Both the position numbers and the translations under genes were made by a program. Positions 1,958-38,663 of a DNA stretch of 56,819 bases are shown here, piece by piece; position 1 is the stretch's first letter; every line of letters starts with the position of its first letter. The stretch spans positions 16,794 through 73,612 of the forward strand of contig CAZXPY010000002.1 of NCBI GenBank assembly GCA_964643435.1, written 5' to 3'. The DNA comes from an uncultured Gammaproteobacteria bacterium (GTDB lineage Bacteria > Patescibacteriota > Microgenomatia > Woykebacterales > RBG-16-39-9b). Below the pieces are notes generated by a model. It had not been told where the DNA came from and ran no database searches. It saw nothing but the letters and a program-made list of their open reading frames with translations.

Positions 1958-4581
1958 GGCTGCTCACCTTCCTTTCTCGGCAAAATTATCTCTCCTGATA
2001 TTATTTCTTTTTCACCAGCAGGGTTTGGGAATTGATGCAACTGCCCAGATTGTTCTTGAAACTTAGCCCTTGAAGGGGGCTCATCAGGAAGATTTGGTGG
2101 GATTGGTTCGGTAACTTCTTTTCCTTCAATCGGTGTTGTTTCAGTTGCCCAAGATGGCAAGATTGGTTGTTGACCCTGCCTAAACTTAGTTTCACTCCAT
2201 TTTCTGATTATTCTTTCTACTTTTTCGACTTCTCTTGAGTATTTTGCCCTTGAGTGAGCGATAGCGCGCTCCTTTGTACCGGTAGTTGTCTGGATTGGCG
2301 ATAGTGACCGGGCACTAAAAGGAGACGAGGCGGCATCGTCTATTTGCAATTTTAGATACATTTCAAACCTACCTAAGTTAATTAGATCATTTTCTAGAAA
2401 GGCTGGTGTAAACTCTCTTTCCAGAAAACGAGCGTCAGTAGGACCGATACCAAAACAAATCAAAGTACCAATATTGCCAAAAACAGCGTCGCGCACGCTC
2501 TCTGGCATCTGCTCAATATATTGATGAGTTAGGGTTAGATCTAGCCGGTATTTCCTTGCTTCCGACAAAACAATCGCGAAAGCTTCGGTGGCAAAGTTTT
2601 GAAATTCATCAGCATAAAGAAAGAAATCCTGACGAGATTCTTCGGGAATATCAACTCTTCTCATCGCCGCAAATTGCAATTGCGAAACGATCATCGCTCC
2701 CAAAAGGGCGGTATTATTGGCACCAATTCTACCGCTTGCCAAGTTAACAAAGAAGAGTTTACCGCCATTTATAACCTCATCTACTTTAATACTACTTTTT
2801 GGTTGCCCAACTATATTTCTAATCAATCCCGAATTAAGAAACTGACCAACTTTATTTTGAATTGGACTAATAGCCTCGGTAATCAATCTTTCGTTTTGCT
2901 CCATCCTGGCAAATTCATTGTTCCAGAAAAGTTTCATTTGAGGATCGTTAATTAAACCAACGATATATTTTCGATAATCCCGATCGGTCAGTAACCGGGT
3001 TATGGAAAGCAGAGAAGTGTTTGGAACTTCAAGTAAGGTAAGGATACAATTTTTTAAAATATATTCTAATCTTGGTCCCCAACTCTCCGCGAAATATTTC
3101 TTAAAAACATCAACTAAAGAATCTGCCGTCAAAGTTCTCTGCCGAGGGTCAAACATTTCTAACATATTTAAAGAAACTGGGTAGAGGGCATCAGCTGGGT
3201 TAAAAATAACTACATCTTCTAAACGCTCTTCTGGTACAAAATCTAGCAGTTCATCAATTAATTGCCCGTGCGGATCCAAAACCGCTAGACCTTCTCCAGC
3301 CCTCATATCTTGGATAATCATATTTTTAAGAAGAGTACTCTTGCCTGTTCCGGTTTTCCCGATTATATAGATATGTTTTCGGCGGTCAGATTTTTTAATA
3401 CCAAAAGGAATTTTTACATCCCGAAAAATTGTCTCACCAATAATAGTGCTTCCGCTCGTTGGTAAATTTAATGGCGGCTCCCCTTTCTTTGCCCTTGTCC
3501 AAGATATAGTCGGAGTCTCGACACTGATATTAGGCAGGTGAAATATCGAGGCAAGTTCTTCAATCGTTAAAACATAGTCGCCTTCTTGTTTTGGGAGGAA
3601 TAAGCGATCTTGAAATTCTTTAATAATTGCGGTTGCGTTCGGTGAATCGGGGTTAGCAGCGAATCCATTTAAACTAGCCGTGGAAAATTGTTGAAAACTA
3701 GCTAAAGCCCCGGAAAGCCTGTTTTCAGCTGCCGACGCGGTCGACGCGATTGCTACGACTCTAATTTTTGTCTCAAATCCCATTTTAGAAAGTTTATTTT
3801 CAATAAGTTTCAAGTCAAGTTCTTTACCAGCTGAAAGTCTAACTGGTTGGGGTGGACCGCTTCTTTGAGGTTCTAACGGAACTGGTCCTCTCATTGCGTG
3901 ACTAAAAACATTACCAAAAATATTCAACGTGTGTTTCCCAACATCCAAGGCAATTCCTCTTGGGTCCAAGCTAATTTCTCCCTGACCCATCCTGACTGAT
4001 TCAACATAATCGTGACCCCTTTCTTGCCAAAAATCGTCAACCGGTCTAATTAAAATTTGAACCCAGATCCTCTCATCCGGTCCTAAATTACCGACGGCGC
4101 TAGTTATCGCCGCCAAGGGATCGACTTCAAAATCCCTAAAGGTCTTGATCGGGAAGATAAAATCTTTAGCGAGAGAAATTTCGCTAGCAGCAACGTTCGC
4201 ACCAGCCGGAATACTCCTAGTATAATCTAAGGCTTGTTTTATCTCGGCATCGGGATATTGAGCGTAAATTTGGGATTGAACAAAGTTTTCAAAAATTTTA
4301 GGAGTATAGACATAAAAACGGATACCTTCAGTACTGGAAGCGATTTCTAAGGATAAGTGTTCTTTAATTTGGGGAGTAAATCGAATTAGACCATGTAAAG
4401 AAGCAAACATCTGCTCCGCCGCAATCGGAAGTTTTTCATTTTCCCGAGGAAGCTGTATGGAAAGAAGAACCCCCTCCTTACTAGCATTAGCGGTCGCCTC
4501 AATGCTTAGTTTTCTAGCTGCCCGGTAAGCAAAGAAAAAAGCTAAGGCAAGAACAATTATGATTACTGAAACATAAAGCAT
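1954..4581 (-). CDS. VirB4/TraD-like (HerA-FtsK superfamily) type IV secretion-type ATPase with N-terminal TM
   Basis: Walker A GKTGTGKS, LAVLDPHG, Walker B LYADEFQN, and EARKYRLDLTLTHQYIEQ motif. Confidence 0.9.
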   Translation of the reverse strand: MLYVSVIIIVLALAFFFAYRAARKLSIEATANASKEGVLLSIQLPRENEKLPIAAEQMFASLHGLIRFTPQIKEHLSLEIASSTEGIRFYVYTPKIFENFVQSQIYAQYPDAEIKQALDYTRSIPAGANVAASEISLAKDFIFPIKTFRDFEVDPLAAITSAVGNLGPDERIWVQILIRPVDDFWQERGHDYVESVRMGQGEISLDPRGIALDVGKHTLNIFGNVFSHAMRGPVPLEPQRSGPPQPVRLSAGKELDLKLIENKLSKMGFETKIRVVAIASTASAAENRLSGALASFQQFSTASLNGFAANPDSPNATAIIKEFQDRLFLPKQEGDYVLTIEELASIFHLPNISVETPTISWTRAKKGEPPLNLPTSGSTIIGETIFRDVKIPFGIKKSDRRKHIYIIGKTGTGKSTLLKNMIIQDMRAGEGLAVLDPHGQLIDELLDFVPEERLEDVVIFNPADALYPVSLNMLEMFDPRQRTLTADSLVDVFKKYFAESWGPRLEYILKNCILTLLEVPNTSLLSITRLLTDRDYRKYIVGLINDPQMKLFWNNEFARMEQNERLITEAISPIQNKVGQFLNSGLIRNIVGQPKSSIKVDEVINGGKLFFVNLASGRIGANNTALLGAMIVSQLQFAAMRRVDIPEESRQDFFLYADEFQNFATEAFAIVLSEARKYRLDLTLTHQYIEQMPESVRDAVFGNIGTLICFGIGPTDARFLEREFTPAFLENDLINLGRFEMYLKLQIDDAASSPFSARSLSPIQTTTGTKERAIAHSRAKYSREVEKVERIIRKWSETKFRQGQQPILPSWATETTPIEGKEVTEPIPPNLPDEPPSRAKFQEQSGQLHQFPNPAGEKEIISGEIILPRKEGEQP

Positions 4582-33114: not shown

Positions 33115-34314
33115 TTAGGAGGCAGAAGTAACTTCGAGAAGTTTTGTTAAGGAATGGCTAAGGTGTTCAACAATTCTGGCTTCTTTGTTGAGTTTACTTT
33201 CAGTTTTTACATCGGCAATTTCTTTCTTAAGATGGGCAGCTAGCTGCGATATCGTCTGAGCCTTTGCTACTTCTTGGGTGGCTTTTGAATCAATTAAAGA
33301 AGTACTTACTCTTGTCAACATATCCGCCAATCCTAAAAGGGTTCGGCTGTAAATATCTAGAAAATCAGCTCTAAAGGATTCTAATTCTTTTTCCAGGTTT
33401 AAAACTTGGTAATAGTGGCCTTGGATATTTTGATAAATAAGATTATCTTTTAGATGGATATTGAAGCTTTCCAGTAACCAGCCTAAGCTGTTTCTAAGTA
33501 ATCTGATCGTTTCGTAGGTATGAGGCGAACGAGAGGGAAACTGGTAAACTTCAAGTTCTTTTTCTTCAAATTTGCCGAAATAATTTTTGGCGCTCTCAAG
33601 AAAGTCTGGTTTTTTTTGCCCTTGGGTAGAAAAAACAAATGCCCTTCTTTTAAGATTAATAGCTACTTCTCTTAAGCTTAGCGCCAACCCAAAAGCGGCT
33701 GTTATAAGAATTATCATATAAATTGGGTCGGGACCGCTTACTGGAAGGGAGCTACTACCAGTCGTTTCCGTTGCTGCCCCAGTACCAGAAACAGTGTAAG
33801 TCCCTCCTAAAGCGCTTGTTAAGATATCAGAATTAGTGCCGTTTTCCGTTACATTGGAATCGGTTGTCGAACCAGATGTGAACTTAAAAGTAACCGCAGC
33901 GGTACCGGCGGCGGTTCCTTTAAAAGTAATTGTGGCAAACACACCGCTGCCAGAAAAGTAGGGCCCGCTGGTATTGGAAACTCCGCCAATCGTTATCGTA
34001 GTAGACGTACTTGTTTTAGTTGGATAAGTTGGATAAGTTGTACCACCAGCTATTGAGACAACTTGCAGTTTTGTGCCGTCGTAATTCAAAAGTGCATCAG
34101 CGCCATCAGTTTTGGCGCCGCCAGTGTTGATAATAATATCAACGTTGAAATTTTCACCAACCCCAACCGAATCTGAATCTGGTGAAAGGTAAAAAGAACC
34201 AGCTCCGAAAACGGCCTTAGCACTGAAGTGAAAGCTAATTAATAAAAGGGTTATTGAAAGTATCTTAAGAAGGGTCTTAGTTTTTGAAGTAAATATTGAT
34301 TGGGCAGTTATCAT
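33115..34314 (-). CDS. Secreted cohesin-domain protein with LPVSG-TM signal and long predicted cytoplasmic tail
   Basis: Signal peptide; LSP...VGENFNVDIIINTGG..TDGADALLNYD...GSGVFATITFK cohesin pattern; LPVSG then hydrophobic helix; about 185-aa helical tail. Confidence 0.8.
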   Translation of the reverse strand: MITAQSIFTSKTKTLLKILSITLLLISFHFSAKAVFGAGSFYLSPDSDSVGVGENFNVDIIINTGGAKTDGADALLNYDGTKLQVVSIAGGTTYPTYPTKTSTSTTITIGGVSNTSGPYFSGSGVFATITFKGTAAGTAAVTFKFTSGSTTDSNVTENGTNSDILTSALGGTYTVSGTGAATETTGSSSLPVSGPDPIYMIILITAAFGLALSLREVAINLKRRAFVFSTQGQKKPDFLESAKNYFGKFEEKELEVYQFPSRSPHTYETIRLLRNSLGWLLESFNIHLKDNLIYQNIQGHYYQVLNLEKELESFRADFLDIYSRTLLGLADMLTRVSTSLIDSKATQEVAKAQTISQLAAHLKKEIADVKTESKLNKEARIVEHLSHSLTKLLEVTSAS

Positions 34315-34347
34315 TTTATAGTGAGCCTAGAGAACTATATTTATTTA

Positions 34348-34377
34348 ACTATAAACTATTTAAAAACAACTTGTCAA
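34348..34377 (-). promoter_or_regulatory. Promoter of the LPVSG cohesin gene
   Basis: TTGACA-18-TATAGT. Confidence 0.65.
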
Positions 34378-34391
34378 GATTCTGAAATTTA

Positions 34392-34988
34392 TTAAGGAAC
34401 GATTGTGAAAGTTGCATTAGCAACTTTAGCTAAAATATCCTTCGAATTGGCGGTGGTGACATTACTCTCGGTTGTCTTACCACTATCATAATCGATGGTG
34501 ACCAGTGCGTTACCAACTGCTTTGGCTTTAAACTTAACTATCGCTAAAACACCGCTTCCGGAAAACTGCGCTTTCCCAGGTTCGCTGATCGCTCCAAAGT
34601 AAATTTTACCGTTTTTTTCACTATTTATCGCGAAGGTTCCGTAGAGGGAGCCGGTTTGAATTTGAATACCCTCCTTTTGTAAATCCGAATCGAGCACTTC
34701 TAGTTTTGTTTTATCATAGGAAATTAGCAAGTCCGTACCGACTGTTTTAGCGCTGTCAGTATCTAAATTTACGGCTACTTCAAAACTATCTCCCACTTTG
34801 TATGTTCCAGCGATTGGGTTTAAAGAAAGAGAAGCCGCGGGGATCTTAGGAGGGGCTACTGGGGTTAATTTTTTCTCTTTTCTCGCTGGAGAAACAATGT
34901 AAAAGTAAGCGGCAATGAGTTCAACTAAAATAACTAAAGCCAACATTACGTAAAGTAAATTTTTATTGTCCTTTAAAAATTTCTCCAT
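34392..34988 (-). CDS. N-terminal TM-anchored single cohesin
   Basis: SLSLNP...VGDSFEVAVNLDT...GTDLLISYDKTKLEV...SGSGVLAIVKFKAK. Confidence 0.85.
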   Translation of the reverse strand: MEKFLKDNKNLLYVMLALVILVELIAAYFYIVSPARKEKKLTPVAPPKIPAASLSLNPIAGTYKVGDSFEVAVNLDTDSAKTVGTDLLISYDKTKLEVLDSDLQKEGIQIQTGSLYGTFAINSEKNGKIYFGAISEPGKAQFSGSGVLAIVKFKAKAVGNALVTIDYDSGKTTESNVTTANSKDILAKVANATFTIVP

Positions 34989-35003
34989 AAAAATCCTGTT
35001 AGG

Positions 35004-36509
35004 TTACTCTGGATCGGCTTCCTGCAGATAATTAGCTAACATCATTGAATAATCGATCGAGTTCACAACTGTATCTAAATTAAGATCAGCTTTTGCGTCA
35101 TTCTTGGGTATGTAAGAGCTTACCAAGATTGAATAGTCAATTGAGTTTATGCTCCCATCACCGTTGAGATCACCAAGTTTAATTTTACCAGCCATTACGC
35201 TAATTTGTCTGGCAGCAGATGTTGTTACTACTACCCTTCTCAAGGCCTTGGTAATTTGGATTTTAATTTTAGAGGCAACCCCAACTTTCATCACCCCATC
35301 ACTTAAAGATAAATTCAAACTCACTAAGCCGCCGCCAACACTAATTTCTTGGCTAAAATTCGTACCGGGAATGCTCACAGCACCAGTTAGTTTACCGATA
35401 AGGGCGGCCGGTAGTTCCATACTCAAAGAAATCGTGTTAACCCACTGATCAGTTCCTCCTATTGGAGTAGGTGTAGGGGTTGGAGTAGGTGTAGGTGTAG
35501 GCGTCGGTGTTGGGCTGGTTCCGCCGGAAACTGTGTAAGAAATTTCTGCCGTATTGTTACCCTCATTGCTCTCAGGAACATTTTGTTGATAATCAGTAAC
35601 CACTCTAATTTTATACGTACCCGCTGTGCTTGGCGCAACAAAGGAATAGTTACCAATACTAGCGTCTGGTTGCCTTTGCGAAGCACCGGAAGCTAAAGAA
35701 GAGGTAAATGCTGCTCCACAAAGCTGTTCAGTGGTTTTTCCATTACAAGCGTTATACTGACCGGTCCAAAAGTTACTAGCGGTTCCGGTACCTTGATTTT
35801 TCACGTTGTAGAAAAAATCCACACTAGCACCTGGTGCCACGGTACTTCCAGTTGTGTTGGTTAAGTTTTGCACGATTAAATCTGGTAATCCGCTAGGTTG
35901 GGGTGTAGGAGTGGGAGTGGGGGTTGGCGTAGGCGTAGGCGTAGGAGTGGGTGTCGGTGTAGGAGGCGGCGGAGTTGGTGGTGCTGTCGTTGTCGCGGTA
36001 AAGGTTTCAAGAACTTTTATACTACAATCCAGGGCACAGATCTTACCATTGTAAGTCGTCCCTCCTTGAAGACCCTCAAAACTAGTCTGGGTTCCACTAG
36101 TACTGGCTATTTTTCCATCCAAGGTTATAACGTAACCCCAACTTTCGGTTAACACCCCACTAGCATTAGCTGTCCTAGATTGTTGCCGTAGTTTCGTACC
36201 GGTTCCACAGTTTGGTTGACATAAAACAACCGTATAAGTCTTGTTTGGTGTTAAACCAGTAAAAGTGGTACTTGTGGCTCTCCCCGACCAAGTTTTAACA
36301 AAAGTGGTACCATCAACAACAGCAACGGCAAATTCGTAATGACCCCAAGTAACGCTACAGCTATTAGAAGTACAGTTAGCGCCGCTAAATTCAGCTTTAC
36401 TGCGAAGATCAGAAATAGTTTTTATCCCAAAAGTAGTTAAAGGAATTGCCAAGGCAACTAGGGAGATTATAAGGAGAATTCGTTTATCTCGGGCAGTGAT
36501 TTTTTCCAT
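35004..36509 (-). CDS. TM-RSKA surface protein: FN3-like modules, PT linker, CARDB-like domain, C-terminal dockerin
   Basis: DLRSKA; LPDLIV..L...NQG...ESNEGNN CARDB pattern; DLNGDGSINSID / DLNLDTVVNSID. Confidence 0.85.
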   Translation of the reverse strand: MEKITARDKRILLIISLVALAIPLTTFGIKTISDLRSKAEFSGANCTSNSCSVTWGHYEFAVAVVDGTTFVKTWSGRATSTTFTGLTPNKTYTVVLCQPNCGTGTKLRQQSRTANASGVLTESWGYVITLDGKIASTSGTQTSFEGLQGGTTYNGKICALDCSIKVLETFTATTTAPPTPPPPTPTPTPTPTPTPTPTPTPTPQPSGLPDLIVQNLTNTTGSTVAPGASVDFFYNVKNQGTGTASNFWTGQYNACNGKTTEQLCGAAFTSSLASGASQRQPDASIGNYSFVAPSTAGTYKIRVVTDYQQNVPESNEGNNTAEISYTVSGGTSPTPTPTPTPTPTPTPTPIGGTDQWVNTISLSMELPAALIGKLTGAVSIPGTNFSQEISVGGGLVSLNLSLSDGVMKVGVASKIKIQITKALRRVVVTTSAARQISVMAGKIKLGDLNGDGSINSIDYSILVSSYIPKNDAKADLNLDTVVNSIDYSMMLANYLQEADPE

Positions 36510-36535
36510 ACAAAGATTAGGTTTTTAGTATCTCA

Positions 36536-36565
36536 AAGATAACAAACAAGCGGCTATCTTGTCAA
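36536..36565 (-). promoter_or_regulatory. Promoter of second dockerin-cohesin pair
   Basis: TTGACA-18-TATCTT. Confidence 0.55.
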
Positions 36566-36574
36566 CAATTTTTG

Positions 36575-37183
36575 TTATTCCGTAATTGTGTACTCTGCGT
36601 TTACCACTTTCGAAAGGATGTCAGCCGCCTTTTCGGTAACCACGTTAGAATCAGTCGTGGCCCCAACAACGCTCTCGATTTGAACTTGCGCCTCTCCCAA
36701 TCCTTTTGCTCTAAATTTTATGCTCGCCAAAGTGCCGCTTCCCGAAAATCGATTTTCCCCTGGACTGGAAACCGCGGCAAAATAAATTTTTCCGCTTTTT
36801 ACTTCGTTTGAGACCGCTGTATCGTATAAATCACCGCTTTTTATTTGAATACCTCCTTTACTTGAATCTGAATCGACAACTTCTAGTTTCGCTTTATCAT
36901 AACTAACTACCAAATCCGTCCCGACTGTTTCCACACCGCCGGTATCTAAGTACACGCCGACATCAAAACTTTCCCCTAGTCTATACCCAGCAACCGACGG
37001 AGTTAGGGCTAAAGTAGCGATTTGCACCTTTTTACTAGAAACTTTGACTCTTTCTTTTACTGGTAAAAGAATCTCTGGTAAAAATAAAGAGGTTATGAAG
37101 GTTGCCTCAACCAAAATTATCAAAGCCAAAGCCGCTGTCAAAAAATTTATATTTTCTTTCAAATAATCATCAAAGAGTTTCAC
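36575..37183 (-). CDS. N-terminal TM-anchored single cohesin (paralog of 34392..34988)
   Basis: LALTP...LGESFDVGVYLDTGG..TVGTDLVVSYDKAKLEV...SGSGTLASIKFRAK. Confidence 0.85.
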   Translation of the reverse strand: MKLFDDYLKENINFLTAALALIILVEATFITSLFLPEILLPVKERVKVSSKKVQIATLALTPSVAGYRLGESFDVGVYLDTGGVETVGTDLVVSYDKAKLEVVDSDSSKGGIQIKSGDLYDTAVSNEVKSGKIYFAAVSSPGENRFSGSGTLASIKFRAKGLGEAQVQIESVVGATTDSNVVTEKAADILSKVVNAEYTITE

Positions 37184-37192
37184 AATTTTATT

Positions 37193-38581
37193 TTACTCTT
37201 TATCGCCTTCCTGTAAATAGCTAGAAAGCATTATTGAATAATCGATTGAATTTACCACGGTATCTAAATTAAGATCGGCTCGCTCGTCATCAAGGGGCAT
37301 ATAAGAACTTACCAGAATTGAGTAATCGATCGAGTTAATAATATTATCAGCGTTTAAATCGCCTAGCTTAATTAAACCAGCGTTTATTGTTAGCTCTTTC
37401 GAGCTTGGAATAAAGTCAACTATTCGTAGTAGCGATTTTTCAACTGCCAATTTCAACCGCTTGGTAACTCCCGAAATAGCAAAAACTCCGTCAGGAATAG
37501 TTAAAGTTACGGTATTATTATTCGCCCCAAGATTACTACTAAATTCAGGACTAGTAGCGATAATATTCAACTTAGCGGCCAGTAAGCCTTGAAGGACGGC
37601 TGGTAAGTCTACATTCACGATGATTTTATTAACCCAAGTCGGTCCCCCGCCTGGTGGCGCGCCGGAAACAGTGTAAGTCTTTGTTAGATAATTATCTATT
37701 TCGTTAGCCTCGGCGTATTTGCAATCAGAGTCAGCAAAAAACCCTAGACTAAAAGTACCATCGGTAGTTGGGACCTGAAAGGCGCCGATGTGTGTCCGAG
37801 TCTGACCCGAGTCATAAGTATCGCTAAAGGTTCCGGCATCTCCGTCTGGCGCTGGTCCCCATTGGTTTACACCGCAAGCCGGTTTTGTGGGGCTGTGCTT
37901 GAAACCCTGAGTAACAACATCGAGTGCAGTAGGGCTACCATTGTTGCTAACCGTAATTTGAAAATCGACCCATTGGCCTTGAAAGTAGGGTCCTGGGGTA
38001 TTAAGAACAATAGAGTCAACACTTAAATGCGCTTCCCCGGGTTGTGGTGGTGGAGGTGGTGTTGGCGTTGGTGACGGACCAGAAACAGTGTAGGTGGTTG
38101 TTAGATAATTATTCGTTTCGTTACTACTCTCGGCATATTTGCAATCTGAATCAGCAAAAAACCCTAAGCTAAAAGTGCCGTCGTTAGTTGGTACTTGAAA
38201 AGCACCAGTATGAGTTCTTGCCTGTCCTGGGTCATAGGTATCACTAAAGGTTCCGGCATCACCATCTGGCGGTGGTCCCCATTGGTTTACACCACAAATT
38301 GGTTGGGTGGGACTATGTTTGAATCCTTGAGTTACGAGGTCTAGGGCGGTGCTGCTACCGTTGTTCCTAACTGTAATTTGAAAATCGACCCATTGGCCCT
38401 GGAGATATGGTCCGGGTGTAATTAAATTTATGGAAGCTACCTGCATATCAACACCGGGAGTTACTTGAGCTCTGGAGCGAAGATCTTCAACAGTTTTTAT
38501 TCCAAAACTGGTTATCGGAACAGCTAAAGCAATGAGAACTATTATGAGGAGGGTTCGTTTATCTCGGGCAGAAACTTCCAT
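37193..38581 (-). CDS. TM-RSRA surface protein with two CARDB-like repeats and C-terminal dockerin
   Basis: DLRSRA; duplicated GQWVDFQITV.NNG...FADSDCKYAE; DLNADNIINSID / DLNLDTVVNSID. Confidence 0.85.
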   Translation of the reverse strand: MEVSARDKRTLLIIVLIALAVPITSFGIKTVEDLRSRAQVTPGVDMQVASINLITPGPYLQGQWVDFQITVRNNGSSTALDLVTQGFKHSPTQPICGVNQWGPPPDGDAGTFSDTYDPGQARTHTGAFQVPTNDGTFSLGFFADSDCKYAESSNETNNYLTTTYTVSGPSPTPTPPPPPQPGEAHLSVDSIVLNTPGPYFQGQWVDFQITVSNNGSPTALDVVTQGFKHSPTKPACGVNQWGPAPDGDAGTFSDTYDSGQTRTHIGAFQVPTTDGTFSLGFFADSDCKYAEANEIDNYLTKTYTVSGAPPGGGPTWVNKIIVNVDLPAVLQGLLAAKLNIIATSPEFSSNLGANNNTVTLTIPDGVFAISGVTKRLKLAVEKSLLRIVDFIPSSKELTINAGLIKLGDLNADNIINSIDYSILVSSYMPLDDERADLNLDTVVNSIDYSIMLSSYLQEGDKE

Positions 38582-38589
38582 TTAATTAA

Positions 38590-38619
38590 ACTATAGCTTC
38601 TTAAAAGGGGCCTTGTCAA
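38590..38619 (-). promoter_or_regulatory. Promoter of first dockerin-cohesin pair
   Basis: TTGACA-18-TATAGT. Confidence 0.65.
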
Positions 38620-38632
38620 ATTTTTTACGGAT

Positions 38633-38663
38633 AAAAAAGGCGCAAACCCTCAAAGTCTGCGCC
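38633..38663 (-). terminator. Terminator after purC
   Basis: GGCGCAGAC...GTTTGCGCC-TTTTTT on the minus strand. Confidence 0.7.

Follow-up and report, generated by a model that had tools for sequence, protein, structure and literature searches.

The window analysed here, a 56,819-nucleotide stretch of contig CAZXPY010000002.1, carries on its minus strand, at positions 33115–38619, five co-directional genes that encode three cohesin and two dockerin proteins in the order DocA-CohA, DocB-CohB and CohC (Table 1), with a SAICAR-synthase gene on one side and a gene for an HtrA-like protease on the other. The five minus-strand open reading frames (ORFs) were those read by an earlier note, made from the sequence alone, and a profile and regular-expression scan of all ORFs of the window revealed no further cohesin or dockerin, leaving a total of three cohesins, each in a single-cohesin protein, and two dockerins. 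Each Doc gene is separated from its Coh gene by a few nucleotides (9 nt for DocA-CohA and 15 nt for DocB-CohB), and the true intergenic gaps of 93, 65 and 77 nt each hold one sigma-70-like promoter site. These three sites, P1–P3, are the best-scoring of the region on the minus strand, and their −35 and −10 boxes are kept in the orthologous gaps of two related loci, the close L091 and the more distant L004, in which spacer bases have changed; promoter-like sites in the region overall are not enriched (12 versus 9.9 expected from shuffles). The promoter for each unit claimed by the earlier note is thus upheld by three strong sites in three true gaps, and a division into three transcription units, DocA-CohA, DocB-CohB and CohC, is well supported computationally. 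The entire Doc-Coh unit, present as tandem copies approximately 2185 nt apart with 73–75% DNA identity, is an old tandem duplication. The −10 box of DocA ends 8 nt ahead of the ATG (window 38581–38619), and no Shine-Dalgarno sequence is evident upstream of any of the five genes; given the position of this box, the DocA mRNA may be leaderless.

Table 1. Features of the cohesin-dockerin cassette, followed by other features of the window (positions in the window; aa, amino acids; TM, transmembrane).
Feature	Position	Strand	Description
DocA, 462 aa	37193..38581	-	leader, two CARDB/DUF11-like Ig domains, P-rich linkers, X-like module, type-I-like dockerin
DocA leader, aa 1-39	38465..38581	-	ends DLRSRA
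DocA X-like module, aa 316-403	37373..37636	-	
DocA dockerin, aa 404-458	37208..37372	-	
CohA, 202 aa	36575..37183	-	N-terminal TM anchor aa ~14-35, ~20-aa basic linker, cohesin aa ~56-200; GTG start
DocB, 501 aa	35004..36509	-	leader, fn3-like region, (TP)n linker, CARDB, (TP)n linker, X-like module, dockerin
DocB leader	36390..36509	-	ends DLRSKA
DocB X-like module, aa 356-442	35184..35444	-	
DocB dockerin, aa 443-497	35019..35183	-	
CohB, 198 aa	34392..34988	-	N-terminal TM anchor (LALVILVE) and cohesin; 50% identical to CohA
CohC, 399 aa	33115..34314	-	signal peptide (SAKA), cohesin, G/T/S linker, LPVSG, TM helix, NLKRRAF, helical tail
CohC cohesin, aa 38-176	33787..34203	-	
CohC LPVSG, aa 190-194	33733..33747	-	
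CohC TM helix, aa 197-214		-	
CohC tail, ~185 aa past TM	33118..33672	-	predicted helical
P1 promoter-like site	38590..38619	-	TTGACA-N18-TATAGT, 11/12; 5' of DocA; identical boxes in orthologous gap of L091
P2 promoter-like site	36536..36565	-	TTGACA-N18-TATCTT, 10/12, with TG; 5' of DocB; conserved in L091 and L004
P3 promoter-like site	34348..34377	-	TTGACA-N18-TATAGT, 11/12; 5' of CohC; in L004 boxes conserved, spacer varies
Intrinsic-terminator-like hairpin	38639..38663	-	11-bp stem and T run; ends SAICAR-synthase gene; 5' boundary of cassette
Coupling-protein ATPase, 875 aa	1954..4581	-	TrwB/VirD4-like (TrwB_AAD_bind, DUF87)
fn3 protein, 1353 aa	25879..29940	-	leader shared with DocA and DocB
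DUF5667 protein, 1599 aa	47414..52213	+	three DUF5667 repeats (155 bits)
GC-rich block	52000..54200		likely insertion sequence
IS110-family transposase ORF	52911..54131	-	

The family identities proposed in the earlier note, Cohesin and Dockerin_1, hold in Pfam, where all five proteins exceed the curated cut-offs. CohA, CohB and CohC score 39.7, 38.8 and 38.4 bits against Cohesin (PF00963, cut-off 24.1), 14–16 bits above it, while against Dockerin_1 (PF00404, cut-off 22.9) DocB scores 35.3 bits and DocA a marginal 24.5 bits, 1.6 above; NCBIfam models gave no additional match above threshold for the cassette proteins. The fold of CohA agrees with this assignment. It was predicted with AlphaFold2 (AF2) from a block alignment of a one-chain construct, the X-like module and dockerin of DocA followed by CohA, and the cohesin domain was compared with the PDB using Foldseek. 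With a predicted local distance difference test score (pLDDT) above 90 over most of the domain, CohA is predicted to take the nine-stranded, flattened β-sandwich (jelly-roll) fold of solved cohesins and has 66 fold matches at E ≤ 1e-3, the best 50 of which are all cohesins; type I cohesins lead the list (best match 6kgf_C, TM-score 0.81, rmsd 2.2 Å), and the non-cellulosomal cohesin of A. fulgidus (2xdh) is sixth with a TM-score of 0.78. Sequence identity to solved cohesins is 12–20%, with a best sequence-search E of 0.009, placing CohA on a remote branch of the cohesin family. The cohesin domain of CohC was predicted by AF2 with a pLDDT of 65–93.

The calcium-binding residues of both dockerins are intact. 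The loops read DLNADNIINSID and DLNLDTVVNSID in DocA, and DLNGDGSINSID and DLNLDTVVNSID in DocB, with Asp or Asn at positions 1, 3, 5, 9 and 12 and, as the earlier note had seen, Ser10-Ile11 in all four, and after each loop comes YSI(L/M)..SY, giving the duplicated loop-plus-helix pattern of a type I dockerin. The two DocA repeats are near-symmetric (SIDYSILVSSY and SIDYSIMLSSY), while between DocA and DocB helix 1 is identical (SIDYSILVSSY) and helix 3 reads SIDYSIMLSSY versus SIDYSMMLANY. For 2vn5/2vn6 a dual binding mode has been described that stems from symmetry within the dockerin, and type I complexes, among them 1ohz and 2vn5, have established which positions set dockerin specificity. 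The repeats of the cassette dockerins are compatible with dual-mode binding, which the earlier note had raised from the symmetric residues at 10 and 11. Its description of the two dockerins as nearly identical was too strong, as they share 43 of 56 residues (77%) at the protein level and approximately 74% at the DNA level, and are better called conserved; recent gene conversion between them was rejected, with DNA identity only ∼74%. A profile of the X-dockerin region matches solved dockerins (best 2y3n_B, E = 1.7e-7), compared to which the inter-repeat linker of DocA and DocB is approximately 5 residues shorter. The AF2 pLDDT of the dockerin was 27–38, with just three sequences in this part of the multiple sequence alignment.

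Beyond their leaders, DocA and DocB align well only over the C-terminal ∼150 residues, which comprise the dockerin and a preceding module of approximately 90 residues. This X-like module, ∼30–40% identical between the two proteins, has a sequence match in neither Pfam nor the PDB and is predicted to be β-rich, with AF2 pLDDT below 50. Upstream of it the earlier note had placed two CARDB domains in DocA and an FN3 plus a CARDB domain in DocB: CARDB-like units are indeed found in both (DocA, CARDB 28.3 bits and DUF11 29.1 bits; DocB, CARDB 46.4 bits; Pfam), but the FN3 assignment is sub-threshold (22.4 bits versus a cut-off of 25), in a region that contains Cys. The CARDB-like units of DocA are tandem copies within the protein, with 83% protein and 80% DNA identity, and stem from a duplication younger than that of the Doc-Coh unit. 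Neither protein has a Pfam match to a glycoside hydrolase (GH), carbohydrate esterase (CE), polysaccharide lyase (PL) or carbohydrate-binding module (CBM) family. Kinship of DocA to PamT, of the Pam pilus of Candidate Phyla Radiation bacteria (CPR; NCBIfam NF058579), was rejected at 17.8 bits versus a cut-off of 240, and the Pam pilus paper mentions neither cohesin nor dockerin.

Both Doc proteins begin with a Sec-type leader, in which a basic n-region is followed by a hydrophobic core of 19 residues and then by a conserved FGIKTxxDLRS(R/K)A. This leader, ...(I/P)LT.FGIKT(I/V).DLRS(R/K)A, also heads the otherwise unrelated 1353-residue fn3 protein of the window, and in other CPR loci (L004, L007 and L098) the dockerin proteins have (D/E)(I/L)R(S/K)(K/R)A variants after the hydrophobic core; the motif resembles a signal-peptide c-region or cleavage motif common to the lineage.

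The cohesins are anchored in two ways. In CohA and CohB the anchor is a single TM helix at the N-terminus, with a glutamate inside it (LALIILVEATF in CohA and LALVILVELIA in CohB). An acidic residue within the TM helix is common to N-anchored small cohesins, including family members P0081–P0163, in the pattern (L/I)(G/A)xxxx(V/I/G)E(I/L/V)(I/V)(W/Y/F)(G/A), and its conservation suggests an intramembrane partner. A prepilin-like reading of this glutamate was rejected, given that no basic leader abuts a G/A cleavage site, the glutamate is at +6 and the residues before it are hydrophobic. CohC has a signal peptide of the cleavable type, and its TM helix lies C-terminal to the cohesin and is followed by a predicted cytoplasmic tail, ∼175 residues of it beyond the basic stretch NLKRRAF, which is predicted to be all-helical (AF2 pLDDT 25–50) and has no family match; a word-indexed search returned a single full-length homologue of CohC, other relatives ending just past the TM helix. 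The LPVSG motif of CohC, taken by the earlier note for an anchor, is not a classical sorting signal because a TM helix and ∼185 further residues follow it, placing it 205 residues from the C-terminus, and a reading as a classical sortase signal was rejected. No NCBIfam sorting-signal model matches the ends of CohC or of C-anchored cohesins, nor does the 57-kb window contain a TLxTC sortase ORF. In distant family members an LPx[ST/A]G-like motif does occur before the C-terminal TM helix, although it is absent in 46 of the 70 scanned. C-anchored CPR cohesins (P0008–P0016, P0031–P0053, L009 6614–7315 and L099 4301–5008) end in a strongly conserved TM helix, ..(I/V)G..LT(I/V)LG(I/L)(I/L)GLALL, without a basic tail and often with an LPx(S/A)G-like motif before it; this end could be a C-terminal sorting domain of an undescribed kind.

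The arrangement of the cassette recurs outside the window. The neighbourhoods sampled there contain 12 N-anchored small-cohesin genes in nine loci (given as L001, L004–L007, L009, L010, L091 and L097–L099), and each of the 12 lies immediately downstream of a gene whose product terminates in a dockerin, in most cases with an X-like β module ahead of it. In six loci (L007, L009, L010, L097, L098, with two copies, and L099) the dockerin gene and the small-cohesin gene are separated by −23 to +29 nt, and in five of the six the next gene encodes a signal peptide, cohesin, linker and C-terminal TM helix, the exception being the first copy in L098. A triad of dockerin, N-anchored cohesin and C-anchored cohesin genes is found in L007, L009, L010, L097, L098, L099, the window and L004, and cohesin and dockerin genes co-occur in all loci examined. 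The plug-and-socket idea of the earlier note is strengthened by the small N-anchored cohesin that lies directly downstream of a dockerin gene in every related CPR locus examined.

Comparison with close relatives highlights the exchange of the N-terminal regions of the dockerin proteins. L091 has the same cassette, with CohA 89% and CohB 94% identical to those of the window, but two Big_7 domains take the place of the CARDB domain of DocB. L004 shares the gene order around the cassette, where S41 protease, HtrA, RF1 and L31 are 82–93% identical to their counterparts in the window, and has a larger cassette that comprises an NHL-propeller-dockerin protein, a cohesin-Big_7-dockerin adaptor, a cohesin-X-dockerin adaptor, CohA, a giant CARDB/Big_7 X-dockerin protein, CohB and CohC; by its X-dockerin the cohesin-X-dockerin adaptor is the orthologue of DocA, and the CARDB/Big_7 giant is that of DocB. 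Between the window and L004 the dockerin core is invariant, while CohA and CohB are 62–65% and the CohC ectodomain 83% identical. A second dockerin subtype, GDLN.DNK(V/I)DIFDLSILL, occurs at 3154–7992 of L004 on the NHL propeller and the cohesin-Big_7 adaptor, and the cohesins of this cassette likewise include a second subtype, AVQANL(S/T)Y; together they imply a two-tier adaptor hierarchy that is absent from the window. Further afield the cargo is a metallophosphatase in L007 and TIG domains in L009, where it bears two dockerin modules beside one cohesin of each type. The X-like module is co-inherited with the dockerin while the upstream cargo changes, even between close relatives, and among the relatives the cargo includes NHL, Big_7, TIG and phosphoesterase domains and no carbohydrate-active enzyme (CAZyme).

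The small-cohesin family is large. Its profile matches 14,561 cluster representatives (50%-identity clusters) at E ≤ 1e-3, a number that falls to 4,852 at E ≤ 1e-10 and to 760 at E ≤ 1e-30, and many members are single-cohesin proteins of 190–280 residues. The exact cassette proteins are found on a few metagenomic contigs, SRR12113383 being among the samples with this genotype, and the exact X-dockerin type of the window in six loci of a scan of Joint Genome Institute (JGI) metagenomes; this particular plug is lineage-restricted. The word-indexed homologue search with the DocB X-dockerin returned one fragment. A pattern scan of the genome collection derived from the cohesin alignment gave 175 pattern matches, none of which was confirmed.

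We consider it probable that the locus is a non-cellulosomal cohesin-dockerin cassette for the docking and display of variable surface proteins, with interchangeable X-dockerin plugs and membrane-anchored cohesin sockets. DocA and DocB would be exported via Sec by means of the shared leader ending DLRS(R/K)A, and their N-terminal Ig-type domains (CARDB and fn3-like) would form the variable cargo, projected on Pro/Thr-rich stalks. The C-terminal X-like module and predicted calcium-binding dockerin would plug into cohesins at the cytoplasmic membrane, anchored by an N-terminal TM helix in CohA and CohB or a C-terminal one in CohC, such that the cargo would be kept on the envelope. Which cohesin each dockerin binds, and any calcium dependence of binding, are inferred. 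Nearly all putative recognition positions are the same in both dockerins, so that cross-binding would be expected rather than private pairs; this makes the two private dockerin-cohesin pairs of the earlier note doubtful, and, because the dockerins are internally symmetric, we propose that these interchangeable plugs could bind in either orientation. As relatives attach other cargo to the same X-dockerin, the cassette may serve as a general display platform, and the phosphoesterase cargo of L007 suggests that it also displays enzymes. The cargo is adhesin-like and most likely pinned to the cell surface, and its adhesin-type domains and rapid turnover make a role in host attachment plausible.

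Several observations weigh against this proposal. The single-chain fusion of X-DocA and CohA was uninformative about an interface in AF2, with the X module and dockerin at pLDDT below 50. The window encodes three cohesins but two dockerins, which leaves one socket or more without an assigned plug here, and the divergence of CohA and CohB from those of L004, beside an invariant dockerin core and flanking housekeeping proteins that are 82–93% identical, is not the simple co-evolution expected of tight private pairs. The topology is also less than clear-cut, as the count of Lys and Arg residues after the TM helix of CohA and CohB equals or exceeds that before it, so that the positive-inside rule does not clearly place their cohesins outside. 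Cleavage of the Doc leaders is suggested solely by an S-x-A motif approximately 10 residues past the hydrophobic core, and an episymbiotic lifestyle by taxonomy alone, the window itself being silent on lifestyle.

The recurring triad would also suit a two-station arrangement in which the N-anchored small cohesin encoded with each cargo would be a membrane-proximal holding partner or receiver that takes up the dockerin at its exit from the Sec channel, and final attachment would be to a CohC-type cohesin, either by hand-over or by one symmetric dockerin binding two cohesins at the same time. Three cohesins alongside two near-equivalent dockerins in the window, the near symmetry of the dockerin repeats and the two-dockerin cargo of L009 beside one cohesin of each type are all in keeping with such a scheme, as is the greater conservation of the CohC ectodomain than of CohA and CohB between lineages (83% versus 62–65%), which matches the invariant dockerin core. 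However, the scheme is drawn from gene order alone, and a membrane linker of ∼20 residues would hold the cohesin of CohC no further out than those of CohA and CohB, and we regard it as unlikely. Strictly orthogonal pairs, in which DocA would bind only CohA and DocB only CohB, leaving CohC to a dockerin from another part of the genome, would account for the operonic association of each Doc gene with its own cohesin and for the maintenance of the A and B sets as separate orthologues in L091 and L004; CohA and CohB are just 50% identical, and the X-like modules, at ∼30–40% identity, could add specificity. The almost identical dockerin helices of A and B speak against such pairs, which seem decidedly unlikely, and with only ∼57 kb of the genome in view, dockerins encoded outside it cannot be counted. 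We think it quite improbable that the cassette is a trans-envelope receptor-like complex of two differently anchored cohesins and a symmetric dockerin, in which the TM glutamate contact and the CohC tail would couple cargo occupancy or load, for example on contact with a host cell, to the cytoplasm. CohC in this lineage would, on that account, have gained its cytoplasmic helical tail of ∼185 residues, and the complex, if real, would be a cohesin-dockerin device for mechanosensing or host-contact signalling in episymbiotic bacteria.

Cohesins and dockerins are the assembly modules of cellulosomes, and the nearest structural matches of CohA are cellulosomal type I cohesins, so a minimal cellulosome-like complex for polysaccharide degradation also has to be considered. 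The cassette is not a cellulosome because it contains neither a glycoside hydrolase nor a CBM, in agreement with the earlier note, which had seen no glycoside hydrolase motif; the dockerin proteins equally lack CE and PL domains, the window contains no multi-cohesin scaffoldin, and the cargo consists of Ig-like domains here and of NHL, Big_7, TIG or phosphoesterase domains, with no CAZyme, in relatives. Such a complex is very improbable. The least credible explanation is that generic Ig-like β-sandwiches and EF-hand-like loops merely resemble cohesins and dockerins in profile searches. The weak sequence similarity to solved cohesins (best E = 0.009), the narrow margin of 1.6 bits by which the DocA dockerin passes the Pfam cut-off and the dockerin fold, which has no confident prediction, would fit such an artefact, but three independent cohesin matches lie 14–16 bits over the cut-off, the best 50 fold matches are exclusively cohesins (TM-score up to 0.81), both dockerins carry duplicated 12-residue loop-plus-helix units with every calcium ligand present, and cohesin and dockerin genes occur together at all loci examined.

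The host is supported as a Microgenomates-group, Woykebacteria-like CPR bacterium, in accord with the Microgenomates membership that the earlier note had assumed. The DnaB encoded in the window is 73–79% identical to those of three Ca. Woykebacteria metagenome-assembled genomes (MAGs), 65–67% to those of Curtissbacteria, and 79% also to those of MAGs labelled Woesebacteria and, evidently wrongly, Gammaproteobacteria. Many MAGs with a DnaB 56–79% identical are titled ‘uncultured Gammaproteobacteria/Pseudomonadales bacterium’ or ‘Nanoarchaeia archaeon’ (L016, L018, L021, L023, L086 and others; GTDB-representative), and look like mislabelled CPR genomes, including the complete 915-kb chromosome OZ246414.1. 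Elsewhere in the window are the 1599-residue protein with DUF5667 repeats, a family typical of CPR envelope proteins, and the 875-residue coupling-protein ATPase, a type IV secretion component. The block at 52000–54200 has a GC content of 55%, compared to ∼41% in the rest of the window, and contains the IS110-family transposase ORF; it is likely an insertion sequence.

To our knowledge, little has been learned of surface building and host recognition in CPR bacteria (Patescibacteria) apart from type IV pili and the recent Pam pili. If our display proposal is right, a conserved operonic module, in which Ig-type, propeller or enzyme cargo is joined to a constant X-dockerin plug next to membrane-anchored cohesin sockets, would offer a testable mechanism for the modular and fast-evolving decoration of CPR surfaces, and such small, simple and highly diverged cohesin-dockerin pairs could provide orthogonal parts for protein assembly. 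Should binding fail, the labels ‘cohesin’ and ‘dockerin’, in wide use across CPR genomes, would have to be reconsidered.

Cohesin-dockerin systems without a cellulosome are already known, and CPR members are named ‘cohesin domain-containing protein’ by NCBI. In the literature searched we found no description of a CPR cohesin/dockerin cassette, its operonic triad, the TM glutamate of small cohesins or X-dockerin cargo swapping. Non-cellulosomal cohesins and dockerins occur in archaea and other non-cellulolytic prokaryotes according to the survey of Peer and colleagues (2009), which PMC9012536 cites, and for those of anaerobic methanotrophic (ANME) archaea a role in surface or cell-cell interactions has been proposed, but not shown (PMC9012536). 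The archaeal modules (2xdh and ANME) resemble the cassette in having no link to cellulose degradation, few cohesins per protein and cargo that varies between close relatives, whereas the cassette is a fixed operonic triad that recurs across CPR loci, with small cohesins bearing the TM glutamate motif. A closer parallel by organism is SEML1_0315 of the cultivated Saccharibacterium Southlakia epibionticum, an envelope protein with Ig/FN3-like domains and a dockerin that came out as essential or growth-defective in transposon sequencing (Tn-seq) during epibiotic growth, for which the authors speculated on the targeting of host glycans (PMC10633639). It emerged from the only genome-wide Tn-seq in the CPR group (PMC10633639) and had no known partner. 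Like DocA and DocB it is, by domain description, a CPR surface protein with Ig-type domains and a dockerin, but unlike them it has no reported cohesin partner, and the genes beside it encode an alpha/beta hydrolase and a tRNA rather than cohesins.

Among sortase-anchored LPXTG proteins of monoderms, the order of motif, hydrophobic helix and basic stretch is that seen in CohC with its LPVSG; the CohC motif, however, lies 205 residues from the C-terminus, and C-anchored members of the family end in GLALL without a basic tail. Cellulosomal type I pairs (C. acetobutylicum CohA2-Doc0917, 6kgf; C. cellulolyticum Coh-DocCel5A, 2vn5/2vn6; C. thermocellum, 1ohz) belong to the same two Pfam families, provide the best structural matches of CohA (TM-score 0.73–0.81) and likewise have dockerins of duplicated 22-residue segments with EF-hand-like calcium loops and internal symmetry. 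The cassette departs from them in having no enzymes, CBM or multi-cohesin scaffoldin, in its single-domain cohesins anchored directly in the membrane and 12–20% identical to the solved ones, and in dockerins with Ser-Ile rather than Ser-Thr or Ala-Leu at positions 10 and 11 and an inter-repeat linker ∼5 residues shorter. In X-module-dockerin dyads of types II and III (C. thermocellum CipA XDoc-SdbA, 5m0y/5k39; R. flavefaciens XDoc-ScaE, 4iu2) the anchors are not TM helices, as they are here, but SLH (S-layer homology) domains or proven sortase substrates, and the cassette dockerin is nearest the type I profile, with an X-like module known from its predicted β-richness at pLDDT below 50. As in these dyads, the dockerin comes immediately after a conserved module, here of ∼90 residues and predicted to be β-rich, and its putative partner cohesins are anchored to the cell, and the adaptors of L004, which combine a cohesin with an X-dockerin, would build a hierarchy similar to that of adaptor scaffoldins.

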